Origin: Bdellovibrionota bacterium
GTDB taxonomy: Bacteria; Bdellovibrionota_C; UBA2361; CAKMMH01
Length of the DNA: 64,000 nucleotides
Direction of reading: 5' to 3'
NCBI GenBank assembly: GCA_050952645.1
Contig: JBMNLI010000010.1
Coordinates: forward strand, 224,001-288,000
Shown here in pieces: positions 3,027 to 55,700 of this stretch. Every line of letters starts with the position of its first letter. Positions within the stretch are counted from its first letter, which is position 1. Both the position numbers and the translations under genes were made by a program. A model generated the notes under the pieces. It was not told where the DNA came from and searched no databases. It worked only from the letters and a program-made list of their open reading frames with translations.

Positions 3027-3683
3027 TTACAGCCCTTGCACTATATACCAAAGGCCAAAAAATCCGATTATAGTTTTAAATATAAACAAGTCTGCGAATA
3101 TTTGCCATCTATTTAGAATCTTAGCTAAAAGGCATAGAGAAATATCGCAAAGTAAAAAAACGAATAAAAAAGGGATAGACTTTTCAAAAGCTATTTTTAA
3201 CGAACTTAATATAAAGGTAAATATTTCATTATTCGTAATATTTGCATCTAATGAAAAATAAGTCGCATCTATTATCGCTCTAAAACTTTCTTCAAAGCCC
3301 CCATAGAAAATCCAAACGAACCAAACATACTTGCTAACTAATGTTGAGAAGTAAGATTGCGTCTCTCCTAATATGGGATTTAACACATACGAGGTATTAG
3401 CTCCCCTACCTGCATCGAAAAGCTCCGCCATAACGCTAGCTATATAAACTTTCATAAAGACTTGAACTGAAAATAAAAAACCGATTAGAATTTCATAATA
3501 ATAATTTTGACTTTCTAAAGTATGACCTGCACAAAACACAACAAAGAAAGACATTAGAAACGACAGCACGCACTTAGTTACAGTCGAGGATATACCGCCA
3601 GCTATAGGAACTAAGATAAGGAATGATATAAATCTTAAAAAATAACTAAAAAAACTTGTTAAATAAACATCAAAAGCAATCAT
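3027..3683 (-). CDS. sctT: Type III export apparatus inner-membrane protein SctT/FliR family
   Basis: Hydrophobic 218 aa; FLRF..F...P, AELFDAGRG (G..ID..RG-like) motif; follows an SctS-like gene with a 4-nt overlap. Confidence 0.75.
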   Translation of the reverse strand: MIAFDVYLTSFFSYFLRFISFLILVPIAGGISSTVTKCVLSFLMSFFVVFCAGHTLESQNYYYEILIGFLFSVQVFMKVYIASVMAELFDAGRGANTSYVLNPILGETQSYFSTLVSKYVWFVWIFYGGFEESFRAIIDATYFSLDANITNNEIFTFILSSLKIAFEKSIPFLFVFLLCDISLCLLAKILNRWQIFADLFIFKTIIGFFGLWYIVQGL

Positions 3684-3946
3684 ATACTTAGCGATCCATA
3701 TTTTATTATTTCTACAAATGCACTATTAAAATAGTTGATAACCAAAGTATAAAAATAATTAAAACAAAAATAAAAAGTAGCAAAAACTACGATACACTTA
3801 ACTATATAAGATAAACTTTGCTCTTGGATTTGCGTTATAGTTTGCAAAAATGCTATAAATATCGAGCATAGCCCACTTAGAAGCAATGGAAGCCCAGAAA
3901 CGATTAAAATGATAAGAACTCCTTGAACTAAAAAATTTGTATTCAT
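3680..3946 (-). CDS. sctS: Type III export apparatus SctS/FliQ
   Basis: 88 aa, FLQTITQIQEQSLSYIVK signature. Confidence 0.92.
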   Translation of the reverse strand: MNTNFLVQGVLIILIVSGLPLLLSGLCSIFIAFLQTITQIQEQSLSYIVKCIVVFATFYFCFNYFYTLVINYFNSAFVEIIKYGSLSI

Positions 3947-4030
3947 AAATCACCTTACCAAGCAAAAAAAAGGCTCTTCACGTTTTAAGTGGGTTAAGGA
4001 CCTTAAAATTAGTATCACGCACCCCACGAA

Positions 4031-5923
4031 ATAGGGTAGAGCGAGGGCTATACCCTCTCCCTCCCGTCGCACCGTACGTACGGGTCTCGTATACGGCGCT
4101 CCATTAATATAATATCAAGTAATACTCAGGTAATACGTCAAAGGGTCGATTAAACCAATTCGTTCCTTTGTTTTACGCCCCAATATTTTAGGGCTTAATG
4201 CATAATTCACTACGTACCACGAACTGCGTCTATACCAGCCGAGTCTGCTGTTAGCAACCTTATAGATTTCTTCATTTCTAAAATTGCAACCAAGCATTCG
4301 GTTCAATTTCTTAAGATTTAGATAGATTCGTCTCGGCAATTTCCACTGTTTAAGTATTATAACCCTCACTTTGTGTCTAAGCCATTGACCATATTTATCT
4401 ATAAAAGTCTTAAGAGTTCCTATCTTATAATAGTTTATCCAACCTTTAATTAACCAGCTTAGCTGTTGAAATGTCGAACCTAACGTTCGTGCCATTGCCT
4501 TCCGTCTACAAAGAATTTCTCTAGTTTTATCATAGAGTTTTCGTTTGCGATCTTCAGCAGGTTTACATTTCCAAGTTTTATACCCACTCTTCCAGTAGGT
4601 AAAGCCTAAGAAAGTGCTTTCCGTCGGCCTAGAGATTTTACTCTTACTTGAATTAATTTTAAGTCGTAGCTTACGCTCCAACCAACTCGCAACGGACTTC
4701 ATTACTCTATTAGCAGCCTTTTCACTTCTAACAAATATATTACAGTCATCGGCATATCTAACAAACTTAAGTCCTCTTGCTTCCAGTTCCTTGTCGAGCT
4801 TATCAAGGTATATGTTAGATAATACTGGGGATAATGGACCTCCTTGCGGAACTCCTTTCTCACTTACAGTAAACAATCCATCTTCCATTATACCAGCTCT
4901 TAAGAACTGTCTTATCAATCGTAGTGTCTTCGCATCTTTGATGCGTTCCCTGATTATCGAAATTAATTTGTCGTGATTAACAGTATCAAAATATTTCTCT
5001 ATGTCTAGGTCTATAACCCAATCATAGCCTCTTTTCAAGTACTCAAGAGTTCTATATACTGCTAGATGGCAATTCCTTCTAGGTCTAAAGCCATAGCTAC
5101 TATTACTAAAATACTTTTCGTATCCGCGTGCTAGTATTTGCGCTACCGCTTGTTGAATTACCCTATCTACTACTGTAGGTATTCCTAAAGGTCTCATCTT
5201 ACCATTAGCTTTAGGTATATACACTCTCTTAACTGGACTCGGCTTATAATTCCCTTCACGTATCTGAGATTTTATCTCTTCTCTGTGAACGGCAAAATAG
5301 TCTTCAAGCTCATCTACTGGCATATCATCTACACCAGATGCACCTTTATTTCGCTTAACAGCCTTTATAGCCTCATCTATATTTTTGTCTGATATAATTA
5401 GTTCAATCAATTCCACCTGTTGCTCCTCCCTCTGTTTGTAAAGCTACTAGAAAACACCCCCTCTATCTTCTGCCCCCACAGGTTACGTTCCTGTTTGTTA
5501 GGCATATCTTCAATTTCGGACTCTTCTAGCCTTGCTTACAGTGATTCACAATATATTAACGTTCAACCCTTCCTTGAGTGGTGTCTCAAGTACTATGGTA
5601 TCAACTGACTTCCAGATATAAGCTTTATATCGCACGTGCATAGCACGCTATCTGGACCTCCGGGGTAAGGCATAGTTCTTTCACCAGACAACCTCCAGAT
5701 TTACTCGTTTGGTTTTACGTTTGTCTTTAGGGCTTCGGTTTGTAGCGCAACCTCACCCACCATTTAGCCTTGTATCTGGTTTCTGTTCGTAGGCTCCTTG
5801 GTTTTGATCCGCCACTTCCTTCACTCTAACATTACTGCTTCGAGCTTGTGGCATCACTACACTTGGTGACAACTACCCGTGACGGGACTTTCACCCGCTA
5901 GAACTATGTCGTGCCCGGCACAC
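4031..5923 (-). mobile_element. Group II intron, class IIC (1893 nt)
   Basis: Minus strand starts GTGTGCCGGGCAC and ends CTACCCTAT. Domain V GAGCGCCGTATACGAGACCCGTACGTACGGTGCGACGGGAGG has the CGC triad typical of IIC. The internal RT ORF has no endonuclease domain. Confidence 0.93.
4115..5416 (-). CDS. ltrA: Group II intron reverse transcriptase/maturase (RT + X domain, no En domain)
   Basis: RPLGIPTVVDRVIQQA, SYGFRP, DLDIEKYFDTVNH, GVPQGGPLSPVLSNIYL, YADD, GWINYY; GTG start with GGAGG RBS. Confidence 0.97.
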   Translation of the reverse strand: MELIELIISDKNIDEAIKAVKRNKGASGVDDMPVDELEDYFAVHREEIKSQIREGNYKPSPVKRVYIPKANGKMRPLGIPTVVDRVIQQAVAQILARGYEKYFSNSSYGFRPRRNCHLAVYRTLEYLKRGYDWVIDLDIEKYFDTVNHDKLISIIRERIKDAKTLRLIRQFLRAGIMEDGLFTVSEKGVPQGGPLSPVLSNIYLDKLDKELEARGLKFVRYADDCNIFVRSEKAANRVMKSVASWLERKLRLKINSSKSKISRPTESTFLGFTYWKSGYKTWKCKPAEDRKRKLYDKTREILCRRKAMARTLGSTFQQLSWLIKGWINYYKIGTLKTFIDKYGQWLRHKVRVIILKQWKLPRRIYLNLKKLNRMLGCNFRNEEIYKVANSRLGWYRRSSWYVVNYALSPKILGRKTKERIGLIDPLTYYLSIT

Positions 5924-6094
5924 GCCCAAAAGAAAATTGACTTTAAAGAAATTTGCATAAAATAAATTACTTTAAATATAGTTGTAATTTTTCTTTAAAC
6001 TATAGCTAGTTTTCTACAAAAGCCAATTTTCTTTTAAGCTAACCCAAAAAACAATTTTTCTAACCCACCTAAAACGTGAAGAACCAAAAAAAAA

Positions 6095-6970
6095 TCAATT
6101 TAGAAACGATAAAATTAAAGATTTCCCTAAAAGTAGCCACCCATCTATAAGCACAAAGATTAATATTTTTAATGGGAGAGATACTAAAGACGGCGTAAGC
6201 ATATACATTCCAAGCCCTACTAAAATATTTGCAACGATTATATCGATTATTAAAAATGGAATCAGTAAACTAACACTCATAGCAAAGGCCTCTTTTAGTT
6301 CTGAAAATAAAAAAGCTAAAAGCACTATAGGGAAACTTTCTTCATCTCTAGTTTTTAATTCTTCTTTTTGAACTTTTAAAGCTTCTAAATTTTTATTTAA
6401 AACTTCTTTGCCATCTTTAAAAACTATTTCTTTATTATTTTCTTTATTTTTTTCTTTGCTAATTTCTTTATTACTTACTTTATTACTTACTTTATAACTC
6501 TCATTATTGCTTTCATTATTGCTTTCTTTATTGCTCTCACTATTGCTTTCTTTACTTTTCTCAATATCGTGTTTTTTAACTATATCTTTTTTTATATCTA
6601 CTAAAAGAGCTAACTCTTTTTTCCCTGAATGCTTAAGCATAAAATTTTTCCAAGGAACTGAAATTTTTTTGAAAATATCCATAGCATCATTAAATTTAAA
6701 TTCTTGAAGCTTTACATTTTGAAAGCTTTTAGCGATATCATGCGATTCTTCATACACGGGGTACATTATAAATAGGCTCAAAGAAAATGATAAAACTAAA
6801 ATTAAGATATTCCCTGGGAATTGTTGCGTGCCGAACCCATTTCTTAAGAGCGTAAGCACTATGCTTATTTTTAAATACGATGTGCAAACTCCTAATATAA
6901 TAGGGATAAGCGATACTAATAAAGTTATAAAAATAAACCACATTGGATTTATAGCCATGCTCGTGTTCAT
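6095..6970 (-). CDS. sctR: Type III export apparatus SctR/FliP family, with low-complexity tandem-repeat insertion
   Basis: TSYLKISIVLTLLRNGFGTQQFP, SELKEAF, PFLIIDIIVANILVGLGMYML, PLKILIFVLIDGW; no FliP-type N-terminal signal peptide. Confidence 0.92.
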   Translation of the reverse strand: MNTSMAINPMWFIFITLLVSLIPIILGVCTSYLKISIVLTLLRNGFGTQQFPGNILILVLSFSLSLFIMYPVYEESHDIAKSFQNVKLQEFKFNDAMDIFKKISVPWKNFMLKHSGKKELALLVDIKKDIVKKHDIEKSKESNSESNKESNNESNNESYKVSNKVSNKEISKEKNKENNKEIVFKDGKEVLNKNLEALKVQKEELKTRDEESFPIVLLAFLFSELKEAFAMSVSLLIPFLIIDIIVANILVGLGMYMLTPSLVSLPLKILIFVLIDGWLLLGKSLILSFLN

Positions 6971-7917
6971 ACAGATTGCCTTAAAATAATATTTCTAACG
7001 TTTAAGCCTTTGCTTTTTAAAGTCTCTAAAATTTTTGTTCTCTCTTTATGAAAATTTAAATAATCCTTGTAAGAATTTATAGAAATATTTATATCTACTA
7101 TATTTTGATTTTCTAAAAAATTTAAATTAAATAAGTTTCCAGCCTCTGAGGTATACTCTAAGGAAATACTCGAGCCATTTTCAAACTTTTGAACGCTAAG
7201 CTCATCAATCCTTTCTTGAAACTTTTCAAAGCTTAAGAAACTCTCCGATGCGTTCTTGTTTTTGCTTTGCTCTCCGTTAAACGATGTATCAAAAAAACTA
7301 TTATCATTATTTTGAACTATTACGCTTCTATTGTCGCACTCCTGTAAACTATCGCTTGTGCATTCTAAATTTGTGCTACGCTCGACATCACTTTCTATTT
7401 CTTCTATAAAAGATTTTTCTTTTTCTCCATCTAATTCTTTGACTTTAAGGCTTGCCTTATCTTTTTCAAATAAGTCCTTAAATCTTTTTGACACGATAAA
7501 AGTTTCAATATTTTCCGTCGTCTCTATATTTTCTTTCTTTATTTTTTGAGTTAATTTTATATCTTCTATTTTTTTATAAATAAACTCTAGCATCTTATTA
7601 GACTTATTTAATTTCTTGGTTAAGTCTTGAGTTTTAAGCTCTAGCTCGCTTGCGATCGCCTTGTTCTTTTCTAAATCTTTCGACTTTTCTACGATTCTCT
7701 TTTGCAAAAACTTTAAATTATTTTTTGCGTCTTTATCATCTTTAGTTTTTCTTTCTATAAAAGAGCTTCTTACTCTCTCAAAATCGCTATTTTTTTCCTG
7801 AATTCTCGTTTTTACTTCTTGAAACTTTACGTTTTCTTCTCTTAAGCGATTTTCAAGCTCAAGCTTTGATATAGTGTCGTATTCATATTTTTTTATTAGA
7901 AAATCTTTTTCTTGCAT
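6967..7917 (-). CDS. Coiled-coil protein with FliK/SctP-like C-terminus (putative T3SS stalk/ruler)
   Basis: About 140 aa of charged coiled coil, low-complexity middle, C-terminal beta-rich segment ending ILETLKSKGLNVRNIIL; overlaps the sctR start. Confidence 0.45.
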   Translation of the reverse strand: MQEKDFLIKKYEYDTISKLELENRLREENVKFQEVKTRIQEKNSDFERVRSSFIERKTKDDKDAKNNLKFLQKRIVEKSKDLEKNKAIASELELKTQDLTKKLNKSNKMLEFIYKKIEDIKLTQKIKKENIETTENIETFIVSKRFKDLFEKDKASLKVKELDGEKEKSFIEEIESDVERSTNLECTSDSLQECDNRSVIVQNNDNSFFDTSFNGEQSKNKNASESFLSFEKFQERIDELSVQKFENGSSISLEYTSEAGNLFNLNFLENQNIVDINISINSYKDYLNFHKERTKILETLKSKGLNVRNIILRQSV

Positions 7918-7942
7918 TTTTTAAAACTACGGCTTAAAAAAA

Positions 7943-8236
7943 TTAAATACCATTTTGAAGCTTTCTAACGCTTCCTACGCCTGCTTCTGCTACCCGAGAA
8001 ACGAGTTCGACTTTCATCGCTAAATTATTTACATTTATCTGACAACGCATTAAATCTTTTAACTCGTTCATAGAATTTTTTTGCGTCTCCGATACCTTAT
8101 CGGTTTTTATCGAATCGGTTTTTATCGATGTGAAATGTGATAGATAATCTTTAAAACTCTTATTCGATACAGCATTATTTAAAAGATTATCGTCTAGACC
8201 CATGTTTTTTAATGAATTTAAAAATGAAACTTTCAC
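7943..8236 (-). CDS. Small T3SS-associated helical protein (SctI/inner-rod-like)
   Basis: C-terminus ELKDLMRCQINV..KVELVSRVAEAGVGSVRKLQNG resembles rod/needle-type helical hairpins; first gene of the sctRST cluster; GGAG RBS. Confidence 0.5.
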   Translation of the reverse strand: MKVSFLNSLKNMGLDDNLLNNAVSNKSFKDYLSHFTSIKTDSIKTDKVSETQKNSMNELKDLMRCQINVNNLAMKVELVSRVAEAGVGSVRKLQNGI

Positions 8237-10607: not shown

Positions 10608-11606
10608 ATGGATTTTATAAACGCAAATTTTAATCTTCAAATTTTTGATTATATGATTTCTCACTACCAAGGAAAGTATGCTTTTACGACTATCCTTTCA
10701 ACATTAAATTCTACTCATTATAAATCTGGCGAGCAAATATTCGTTAAAAACGATCTTTTAAAATTTGAAAAGATGCGTAGCGAAGTTGTTCAAGAGCAAA
10801 AGGTATTTTTCGATAGAGGCAAATGTAGCAATGATGATGTAGAATACAGAACTTTAAAAAGTTCATTAGAGCAAATGTCCATGGACTTATTAAATCACGC
10901 TGAAAAAGTAGACCCGATAATCGATGCGACCGACTACTCTTCTGATCCTGAAAAAGTTAATTTTCTAGTAGCATCTTATGGTAGAGTTTGCTACCAGAGA
11001 ATGCACCAATTTAGCTTTAATTTAGACTCTGCTATTACTCTAAATCTTAGGCAAGAAGCTGCAGGATTGCAAAACTTAAGAAGCGTAGCTATTCAAAATA
11101 TGTCGAACTTTGATGGCTTCGTTCAAAATACTATGCTCTCAAAACAATTGATACCTAAAGAAACCTACATCGCATTTTGGGAAGATTGCGTTTCAATTGG
11201 TGCTACACTAAAAGCGGCTTGTCATGATATCGATATGTTTATTAAGCTAAGTGAAAAAGATGATTTTGAATACACAGATTATCCGTATATTCATCAAGAT
11301 GAAATGGCTAGCTGGCAACAATTAAACGTTATCCCACAAAGTATAGGCTACTGGAAAGCTTGCGACTTTACTCCATCGAAAGCCGCACCTTGGATAAGCG
11401 TAAATATAACGGATCCTTTTTTATGTCTTACTAGTTTAAAATATAAACTAACCGTAGATGATACATCTTTATGTATGCAACAAAATATTCCTTTAGTTTT
11501 AGCAAGACGTTGGATAGCCCTTGGCGTTCCGTTAGTAGAGGGAATAGAAAGAATGAAAAAAGGAGAAATGCCACCTCTAGTAAAGGAAGGTGAAAGAATG
11601 CTTTAA
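10608..11606 (+). CDS. Hypothetical protein with C-terminal Trp-spaced repeats
   Basis: 332 aa ORF with AGGA RBS; no recognised family. Confidence 0.7.
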   Translation: MDFINANFNLQIFDYMISHYQGKYAFTTILSTLNSTHYKSGEQIFVKNDLLKFEKMRSEVVQEQKVFFDRGKCSNDDVEYRTLKSSLEQMSMDLLNHAEKVDPIIDATDYSSDPEKVNFLVASYGRVCYQRMHQFSFNLDSAITLNLRQEAAGLQNLRSVAIQNMSNFDGFVQNTMLSKQLIPKETYIAFWEDCVSIGATLKAACHDIDMFIKLSEKDDFEYTDYPYIHQDEMASWQQLNVIPQSIGYWKACDFTPSKAAPWISVNITDPFLCLTSLKYKLTVDDTSLCMQQNIPLVLARRWIALGVPLVEGIERMKKGEMPPLVKEGERML

Positions 11607-11668: not shown

Positions 11669-12679
11669 TTATTTAGCGTATCCTTGATTTCTCGCTCTAT
11701 AAAAATCGGTTAGCTTTTGAAGCACACCTGCACAAACGCTTACGATTTTTCCCCACCCAGTAGGAATAAATGAGAAAACTTTTTTTGCTATACCTAACCC
11801 AGTAGATATTTTCTTTGCACATTTATCAAACCAGCCTTTAATTCCCGAGCGAAGCTTATAAGAGCGGCTAGCAAACATTCCAGTGTTGCCATCATATGCG
11901 ACTGTAAATCTTTGTTTCCCATATTTTACAGTAAAATCGTTTTGAGGGTCTTGCCTAAAGTTTGCTATCTTAGTTTCAAAATCAAGAATTTTATTATTTA
12001 ACTCTTCTTGTTTTACAGGATCTTCGATTATATTTTCTTCCATGTTGCTAGGCAAATCTTCGACTGGCCAACCAAACTCTAAGCTCATACTAGCAAGCTT
12101 TTGATTTTGCTCAGGCGTTATATTAGTATTTCTAAGCCTTACAAAATGCCCATCTTTGCTCCAAGCAAGAAAACCATCTTCGCTATTTCCTAAGCCTCCA
12201 TTCGATAAAATTGCTTGCTCAACTACCGCTCGCCACTCATTTACAGAAAAATTATTTGCATTAGCTTTAAATAGCTCTCCTGCAAGCTCGTTTACTTTAG
12301 GGTCGATAATAATTGCACCTAAAATATAATTCCTAGGATTTACGAGCGTTTCACCACTTATTAACGGTGCATTTCTAGCCGATGTATAAGGGTAGCCACT
12401 AAAAGCCGGAATTACATGGTTTAAGTTTGCTTGAGTAGATGATAAATATCTAAGCAAATTTTCATCAATGTTTTTCAATGCAACGTTTTGAGTTGCTATG
12501 TTTTGAGTTGCTATATTGTGAGAGGCGATATTTTGAGTTAACAAATTTTGGCTAGGCATAACATTTTGCATATTTGTTATATTATTACAATTAGCACTAG
12601 TTCCTGCACCCATATTTTGTGCTATTAAAAAATTGTAATAATCTGCTAATTGCCGATTATAAATATTATTAACTTCCAT
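11669..12679 (-). CDS. Hypothetical protein: N/Q-rich N-terminus, amphipathic C-terminal helix
   Basis: 336 aa ORF, AGGAG RBS, QNIA pentapeptide repeats, C-terminal GIKGWFDKCAKKISTGLGIAKKVFSFIP. Confidence 0.75.
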   Translation of the reverse strand: MEVNNIYNRQLADYYNFLIAQNMGAGTSANCNNITNMQNVMPSQNLLTQNIASHNIATQNIATQNVALKNIDENLLRYLSSTQANLNHVIPAFSGYPYTSARNAPLISGETLVNPRNYILGAIIIDPKVNELAGELFKANANNFSVNEWRAVVEQAILSNGGLGNSEDGFLAWSKDGHFVRLRNTNITPEQNQKLASMSLEFGWPVEDLPSNMEENIIEDPVKQEELNNKILDFETKIANFRQDPQNDFTVKYGKQRFTVAYDGNTGMFASRSYKLRSGIKGWFDKCAKKISTGLGIAKKVFSFIPTGWGKIVSVCAGVLQKLTDFYRARNQGYAK

Positions 12680-39499: not shown

Positions 39500-39589
39500 G
39501 GAGAGATGGCCGAGCGGCTGAAGGCACACGCTTGGAAAGCGTGCATACGGTAAAACGTATCGAGGGTTCGAATCCCTCTCTCTCCGCCA
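39500..39589 (+). tRNA. tRNA-Ser (GGA)
   Basis: GGAGAGA acceptor stem, anticodon arm CACGC-TTGGAAA-GCGTG, long variable arm, GGTTCGAATCC, encoded CCA. Confidence 0.97.
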
Positions 39590-47060: not shown

Positions 47061-47202
47061 GGCTCTTTATGTTTTAAGGCGTGAAGAGTTTTTTTTGTTC
47101 TTCACGTTTTAGATGGGTTTAAAATTCTTAAAAATAGCATCACCTTACCCCACGAGGGCCAAAAGAAACTGTTTTTCTAACCCACTTAAAGCGTGAAGAG
47201 CC
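47061..47202. repeat. Short palindrome plus full MITE-like copy (47097-47202) containing an intron-free target-like junction
   Basis: GTTCTTCACGTTTTAG ... TAACCCACTTAAAGCGTGAAGAGCC; internal ACCCCACGAG|GGCCAAAAGAAA matches the joined intron flanks ACCCCACGAA|GCCCAAAAGAAA. Confidence 0.88.
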
Positions 47203-55413: not shown

Positions 55414-55700
55414 GGTTCTTTGACGTTTTAGAGGGGTTAGCTTAAAAGAAAATTGGCTTTTATAGAAAACTAGCTATAGTTTCAAAAAAAGCTATAACTA
55501 TATTTAAAGTCAATTTATTTTATGCAAACTTCTTAAAAGTCAATTTTCTTTTGGGCTTCGTCGAGGATTAGCAATGCTAATTTTTTAGAATTTAAAACTA
55601 CTTTTAAACGGGAGGAAGCATCTTGCTTCTTTGACGTTTTAGAGGGGTTAGAAAAGTTGCTTTTTTCTAGGTAAGCTAAACTACCTTTAAACGGGAGGAT
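55414..55700. repeat. Two tandem MITE-like copies; the first is the intron-free homologue of the intron-bearing copy
   Basis: GGTTCTTTGACGTTTTAGAGGGGTTAG at 55414 and a similar start at 55625; 55414-55556 aligns to reverse-complemented 5924-6085 and continues TTCGT exactly like the 3' exon. Confidence 0.88.

Follow-up and report, generated by a model that had tools for sequence, protein, structure and literature searches.

How an intron that lacks an endonuclease comes to occupy many sites in one genome, and whether it travels with the mobile repeat in which it lies, are questions raised by a 64,000-nt stretch of the genome of a Bdellovibrionota bacterium (assembly GCA_050952645.1, contig JBMNLI010000010.1, positions 224,001 to 288,000; hereafter, the window). 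A sequence-only reading of this window took the intron for a group IIC intron that homes into a dispersed MITE-like repeat, and suggested that the repeat supplies the intron with homing sites while the intron may in turn be carried along by MITE transposition. The analysis presented here places both elements in the context of the whole genome (1.95 Mb in 17 contigs, designated C below), of public sequencing runs (designated X) and of related introns. The public runs were examined as contigs, whose depth is not a measure of copy number.

The intron and the repeat that carries it

The assignment to group IIC is borne out by Rfam matches, the CGC triad, the AGGAA motif, an EBS1-IBS1 pairing of 3 to 4 bp, a stem-loop 5′ of the insertion site and an intron-encoded protein (IEP) devoid of endonuclease domain (Table 1), the hallmarks present here being those given for these introns in the accessible portion of PMC1702495. 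Domain I is compact, RF02001 being matched over positions 1-170 of 170, and no second EBS/IBS pairing was noticed in it upon inspection short of a full structure model. In Pfam, the IEP matches RVT_1 and GIIM alone. Its top matches among the solved structures of the PDB range from 1e-88 to 1e-107, with LtrA at 2e-47, and the best of them include the GsI-IIC RT (6ar1, 1.2e-99) and 7uim (4.9e-107), which we take to be the E. rectale IIC maturase; the corresponding tree contains no labelled reference IEPs. The window copy misses a C at 5659 that is present in 8/8 public runs and in the other nine genomic copies, and this gap is probably an assembly error. Splicing and retrohoming competence is suggested indirectly by the existence of ten near-identical copies at precise junctions.

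Table 1. Position of the intron, its carrier repeat, related repeat copies and flanking genes in the window. The slash in site sequences marks the insertion point.
Feature	Position	Strand	Remarks
Group IIC intron	4031..5923	-	1893 nt, GTGTG...CCCTAT; 1 of 10 genomic copies
D1-D4-3 match (Rfam)	5670-5841	-	106.7 bits
Domain V (CGC triad) and domain VI (bulged A at 4037)	4031..4101	-	Rfam RF00029, 42.1 bits
RT/maturase ORF of the intron	4115..5416	-	433 aa, YADD, endonuclease domain absent; TIGR04416, 410 bits
AGGAA motif, domain I	5816..5820	-	Typical of IIC introns (accessible portion of PMC1702495)
EBS1 GCUA, Id3 loop	5743..5746	-	Assigned from covariation with target sites
ISL3-type MITE, interrupted by the intron	3972..6085	-	221 bp when empty; ends match ISL3 IS at C10:339480-341339
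Target-site duplication, copy 1	3964..3971		8 bp; A8 on +
Target-site duplication, copy 2	6086..6093		8 bp; A8 on +
Terminal inverted repeat, right end in intron orientation	3972..3996	+	~25 bp
Terminal inverted repeat, left end	6061..6085	-	~25 bp
Internal inverted-repeat module	5924..6039		116 nt; AT-rich outer stem closes multibranch loop; one site per strand
Forward site, occupied	5924..5927	-	IBS1 GGGC; IBS3 = T at 4030
Mirror (reverse) site, empty	6036..6040	+	AAGC/T; filled in 3 other genomic copies, also in public runs
Long-form copy, decayed and empty	55440..55561	+	Internal module 55440-55556; forward site between 55556 and 55557
Short-form copy	47096..47202		107 bp, without internal inverted repeat; junction GGCC/C
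SctR/FliP-family type III/flagellar export gene	6095..6970	-	Upstream flank
SctS/FliQ-like export gene	3680..3946	-	Downstream flank; below curated cut-off

As previously proposed, removal of the intron restores a hairpin element, which measures 221 bp and bears terminal inverted repeats of ~25 bp between two A8 runs. Four lines of evidence identify this multicopy, non-coding repeat as a true and, judging from sequence comparisons, recently mobile ISL3-type MITE, namely the excess of its end motif, its target-site duplications, the existence of an ISL3 insertion sequence with the same ends, and presence/absence alleles. Genome-wide, the end motif is matched 175 times compared with 0, 1, and 1 times in three composition-preserving shuffles, and its occurrences define 48 paired elements, chiefly of about 104, 222, and 270 bp, a ~160-bp class also sharing the ends. 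A perfect 8-bp duplication flanks 15 of the 48, against a mean of 0.76 (maximum 6) in 2000 re-pairings of the flanks, and at least 7 of 8 bp are duplicated in 25 of them; by length, perfect duplications amount to 15 at 8 bp, 3 at 7 bp, and 0 at 9 bp. The 1860-bp ISL3 element at C10:339480-341339 has the same ~24-bp ends and codes for a transposase (PF01610, 173 bits). This is the only full ISL3 found, and its transposase ORF is frameshifted near the 5′ end in the present assembly, possibly because of a sequencing error; a second copy is reduced to a 290-bp left-end fragment (C17:340016-340300). MITEs of the 270-bp class derive from the right end of ISL3, with which they have 220 bp in common, and never contain the intron, and the internal arms are absent from the autonomous ISL3. 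Finally, one contig of run X3 (record 19) joins position 3970 to 6087 across 6 nt of different sequence; this allele is devoid of both elements, and the MITE insertion at the window locus is thus polymorphic.

The two further copies of the junction reported in the window fared differently. The intron-free 18-nt junction at 55544-55561 is exact and lies inside a decayed family copy. The one near 47147-47168 does belong to a true family member, but this is a 107-bp short form devoid of the target stem and probably unusable as a target. Outside this genome, neither the MITE end motif (0/3) nor an ISL3 transposase (0/3) was detected in three genomes of the same family (80-92% complete), and a MITE DNA query against 20 relatives returned two weak matches (E about 2e-4 to 4e-4), both in one of the 20.

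The intron is co-oriented with the sctR-sctS type III export operon; being located inside an operon, it may be transcribed, unlike the terminator-borne copies. Export genes of the type III/flagellar type, SctR/S/T-like and below strict cut-offs, span 3027-8236 on the minus strand, and the SctR-like protein contains a long insertion of low complexity made up of Lys/Glu/Asn (about 6380-6600). Elsewhere, the window harbors a tRNA gene with a long variable arm (39500-39586, plus strand) and two ORFs of about 330 aa each without Pfam match (10608-11606, plus strand, and 11669-12679, minus strand).

Target sites and their supply

The genome contains ten copies of the intron, with identities of 99.66-100%, nine of which reside in the repeat family: six at the forward site and three at the mirror arm on the opposite strand. 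The forward sites read GGGC/T in five cases and AGGC/T in one, the latter where a shorter module of 54 nt is repeated in tandem, while the three mirror sites read AAGC/T. The tenth site, TAGC/A at C15:58210, is foreign to the family and follows an unrelated GC-rich, terminator-like hairpin. The enrichment for the repeat, on which the sequence-only reading had staked itself beforehand, is therefore there, nine of the ten copies lying inside it. Its expectation that each copy would occupy the same nucleotide of the repeat holds for six of the ten and fails for the three that use the opposite strand at the mirror arm and for the one at the unrelated hairpin. What the intron targets is the internal inverted repeat together with a 4-nt IBS1, not the ends of the MITE. 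In a census of the family, 62 modules retain both arms (one being called on both strands and one overlapping); nine are occupied, and 8 of the 37 modules of the long class are. Tandem arrays of the MITE, holding up to 6 modules, are found at C10 about 108200-112600, C7 about 145000-147600, C9 42960-43770, and C17 about 233800-236300, and 3 of the 9 family-borne introns sit in them.

At every occupied site, a stem that closes with a T-run is followed by N-R-G-C and this by T or A; in predicted folds the stem ends 0-2 nt before IBS1 at 10/10 sites. EBS1 (GCUA) is complementary to TAGC and compatible with N-R-G-C at all ten sites, and the commonest IBS1, GGGC, forms just two Watson-Crick pairs and one G-U pair with it and is partly paired with the opposite arm in the fold. 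Among relatives, the hypervariable EBS1 loop changes along with the four exon bases before the junction: across 10 distinct EBS1 variants, Watson-Crick pairs form at 28 of 40 EBS1/IBS1 positions, compared with 13.1 after shuffling (5e-5, a value obtained from kin that are non-independent). As single-stranded DNA, the 116-nt module folds well on both strands (z -4.6 and -4.2). At the family sites, the stem is AT-rich and 10-18 bp long, and the loop measures 24 or 71-82 nt; a multibranch loop of 74-82 nt is unlike that of a terminator. This geometry and the weak pairing of GGGC both tell against the account favored below. Conservation of the arms across 44 distinct modules is a circular observation, since the census chose modules by their arms. 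The intron sense strand lies on the G-rich strand in 8 of 10 copies (P=0.055), a weak bias, the forward arms themselves being evenly distributed (30/62). Insertion of class C introns into the lagging-strand template is reported in the accessible portion of PMC8919778; the bias fits this behavior, which would explain which arm is used.

To what extent does the predominance of the repeat reflect supply rather than preference? Under a hairpin-plus-IBS model, 98 arm sites of the family are compatible and 9 of them (9%) are used, in keeping with the earlier proposal that the repeat provides many homing sites. A strict genome-wide scan retrieved 247 terminator-like hairpins, of which 20 have a compatible tail and 1 (5%) is used. 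Per-site use of repeat and terminators is hence similar, and target supply largely explains the 9/10 bias. Under looser site models, the family represents 24-58% of non-coding candidates yet holds 9/10 introns (binomial P <1e-4 to 0.035), an excess to be read as post hoc, the site models having been drawn up after the occupied sites were known; the long stem or another feature of the repeat may be favored. Short forms with an R-G-C/T junction, about 12 of 23 regex matches, are never occupied, but since only about 1 occupied copy would be expected among them, they are uninformative as a control.

A stronger version of preference would be that the IEP or the intron RNA has adapted to a sequence or shape specific to the repeat, beyond a generic hairpin and EBS1 match. 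Such specialization would account for the nine sites in the family, for the residual enrichment under all four hairpin models, for the TTCTTT motif found in the 3′ arm at all ten sites, and for the recurrence of repeat junctions in runs X4, X6, and X7. We nevertheless consider it unlikely. One copy has inserted at an unremarkable terminator-like hairpin that EBS1 matches perfectly, per-site use is alike for both kinds of sites (9/98 vs. 1/20), and the C of TTCTTT occupies different registers in the terminator-like site and the MITE sites. Moreover, given the hypervariability of EBS1 across the clade, no special adaptation is required for the intron to fit the repeat.

The symmetry of the module has a further possible consequence. 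Junctions at the mirror site occur in runs X4, X6, and X7 and forward junctions in X4, and one contig of run X5 (record 7, 172 nt, depth 7.6) shows the first 28 nt of the intron at both ends in opposite orientation with 116 nt between them. This contig hints at a module filled at both arms; it stands alone and may be a chimera of the assembly graph, and no doubly occupied module is found in the present genome assembly. On this basis one may tentatively, and with more doubt than confidence, picture the MITE as a two-door, self-renewing landing pad that the intron enters from either strand, regardless of the replichore on which the MITE has landed, and in which both doors can be filled at once, so that two introns of 1.9 kb each flank the 116 nt in back-to-back arrangement, with an intron perhaps specialized for the long AT-rich multibranch stem. 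If true, this would extend the set of structures known to serve as IIC targets and would make the copy number of the intron depend on the expansion of the MITE.

Independent homing or carriage by the MITE

Occupied MITEs are no more alike than other members of the family. They are 6-25 substitutions apart over about 170 nt (mean 7.9%), which is not below random sets (P=0.19), and the nearest neighbor of each is an empty copy. Of the 37 rows of the MITE tree, 8 are occupied, and in each of 200 bootstrap trees this state has to change 8 times. The introns, for their part, differ by 0.07%. A single MITE site in a Ser-rich gene family provides the complete series of states: five copies are without MITE, three have a MITE without intron (one whole, two partial), and one has both, the empty alleles containing a single copy of the target octamer. 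This multicopy family, whose products have a long Ser-rich tail, occupies C6:22900-25900 and at least 8 other loci, and the MITE breaks some copies at one shared site. Taken together, the divergence of the MITEs against the near identity of the introns and the three-state series point to independent homing into MITEs that were already in place, as far as sequences can tell.

These data run against the idea that the intron has been carried by MITE transposition. In that scenario, a composite of ~2.1 kb, MITE plus intron, would have been moved by the ISL3 transposase, at least some copies arising by co-transposition. The composite is near the 1860-bp ISL3 in size, its ends and 8-bp duplication are intact in the window copy, the X3 allele described above lacks both MITE and intron, and an intron SNP is common to the three mirror-site copies. 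Yet no two occupied MITEs are alike, the three introns that share the SNP sit in MITEs 8-25 substitutions apart, and the sole ISL3 transposase found is frameshifted, albeit possibly through a sequencing error. We regard co-transposition as very improbable overall, and the comparison of sequences largely refutes it for the eight copies placed on the tree. The nested partnership envisaged between MITE and intron likewise finds no support, occupied copies being scattered; the relationship is most likely one-sided, the intron parasitizing the MITE.

The SNP itself (window position 5399, alignment column 529) is present in the three mirror-site copies and in no other copy of the genome, and runs X3, X6, and X7 are fixed for it. 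It is tentatively read as an older intron allele; its sharing is not what independent homing would predict. The pairing of the mirror orientation with one intron allele, in 3/3 genomic copies and in runs X6 and X7, could instead suggest that gene conversion or recombination between MITE copies spread the intron at the DNA level without an RNA step, and the same could be said of the three occupied modules within tandem arrays and of the mirror copy at C7:31508, which has no MITE part right after the intron. Spread of this kind should homogenize the flanks, but the flanking MITE haplotypes are not homogenized among occupied copies; one site lies outside the family altogether, and a mirror-copy allele in run X3 (record 20) has a forward-type 3′ flank. 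DNA-level spread is accordingly hardly credible as the origin of the copies.

Several copies show later rearrangements or noteworthy surroundings. In the mirror-site copy at C7:31508-33401, the 3′ MITE part is gone from 2 nt past the junction, possibly by deletion or by recombination between intron copies. A 1.86-kb insertion sequence (C10:108923-110780), presumably IS1634-like, whose inverted ends measure ~25 bp and which is flanked by a duplication of 5 bp, splits the ORF of one intron copy, and the IS-intron junction recurs in runs X2 and X5. At C7 about 130430, the sequence that follows an occupied MITE resembles the start of an RNase P RNA gene.

Origin of the intron and comparison with known systems

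The sister of the IEP is an Erysipelotrichaceae protein, 77% identical, nested inside a Bacillota clade (100/100; midpoint-rooted tree), and a search of the three genomes of the same family yielded no match to it. We infer from this phylogeny that the intron was transferred from Bacillota. Among 160 related loci, 47 close ones were examined, yielding 38 distinct 5′ junctions (9 had no 5′ junction); a short hairpin, mostly terminator-like, lies within 50 nt of the site in 36 of the 38.

The most plausible account, in which we place considerable confidence, is that the class C intron, which lacks an endonuclease, multiplied to its ten near-identical copies via ordinary class C retrohoming; in nine of these, it lies immediately 3′ of one or the other arm of the MITE inverted repeat. 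The MITE family would have spread earlier, by means of an ISL3 transposase and tandem duplication, and the intron would have come from Bacillota, where its relatives sit after terminators. The intron RNP would then recognize the base of the stem in single-stranded DNA at the replication fork, EBS1 would pair with IBS1, and reverse splicing would be followed by priming on the nascent strand, the arm located on the lagging-strand template being the arm mostly used. The MITE family would thereby become the main supply of sites, since terminators that end in an R-G-C tail are scarce in so AT-rich a genome.

The closest functional parallels are the terminator-type introns B.h.I1, GsI-IIC, and E. 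rectale IIC, which like this one have the CGC triad, the AGGAA motif, an EBS1-IBS1 pairing of 3-4 bp and a stem-loop at the place where IBS2 would be expected, and have no En domain. Unlike in these introns, a single repeat of transposon origin contains 9/10 sites here, its stem is AT-rich and long-looped, and one element offers sites on both strands. Class C targets are described in the accessible portion of PMC1702495 as terminator motifs or other inverted repeats, and the available part of PMC7306698 portrays class C introns as sheltering behind terminators and as little associated with mobile elements. The IIC-attC introns, likewise of class C, use the imperfect inverted repeat of another mobile system (PMC4424553, accessible portion), whereas here there is no integron or attC, the host is an ISL3-type MITE, and other members of the clade sit at terminator-type hairpins. 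An identity as an IIC-attC intron was itself considered and rejected, the targets being ISL3-ended repeats or a terminator-like hairpin, not attC. The MITE also has a counterpart: a 187-nt MITE of Microcystis aeruginosa mobilized by ISL3 has GGCTCTTC-type ends as in ISL3 elements and 8-nt direct repeats, as here; the accessible text of that report mentions no intron (PMC11448079), whereas in the present genome several size classes share the ends. A literature search that included the accessible portions of PMC4853749 and PMC2828477 found no account of a IIC intron homing into a MITE, and an earlier description may exist.

The mechanism is thus a known one; the target is unusual, in that a dispersed, two-sided, AT-rich and long-looped stem supplies 9/10 sites. 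A class C intron, probably acquired horizontally, reached ten copies via a MITE family in a host with few suitable terminators, which suggests that target supply from another parasite can set the copy number of an intron. The locus also constitutes a ready test of the DNA stems that IIC RNPs accept, being AT-rich, long-looped and used on either strand.

Changes of EBS that open new sets of targets, as here, are known from the IIB introns of Thermosynechococcus elongatus (PMC2882425, accessible portion), which use EBS2 and long target sites in contrast to the 4-nt EBS1 plus hairpin of the present intron. Within the clade, one Allobaculum genome contains six related introns (L013-L016, L022, and L025) with three EBS1 sequences, each of which roughly fits its own site, indicating EBS1 diversification within a single genome.
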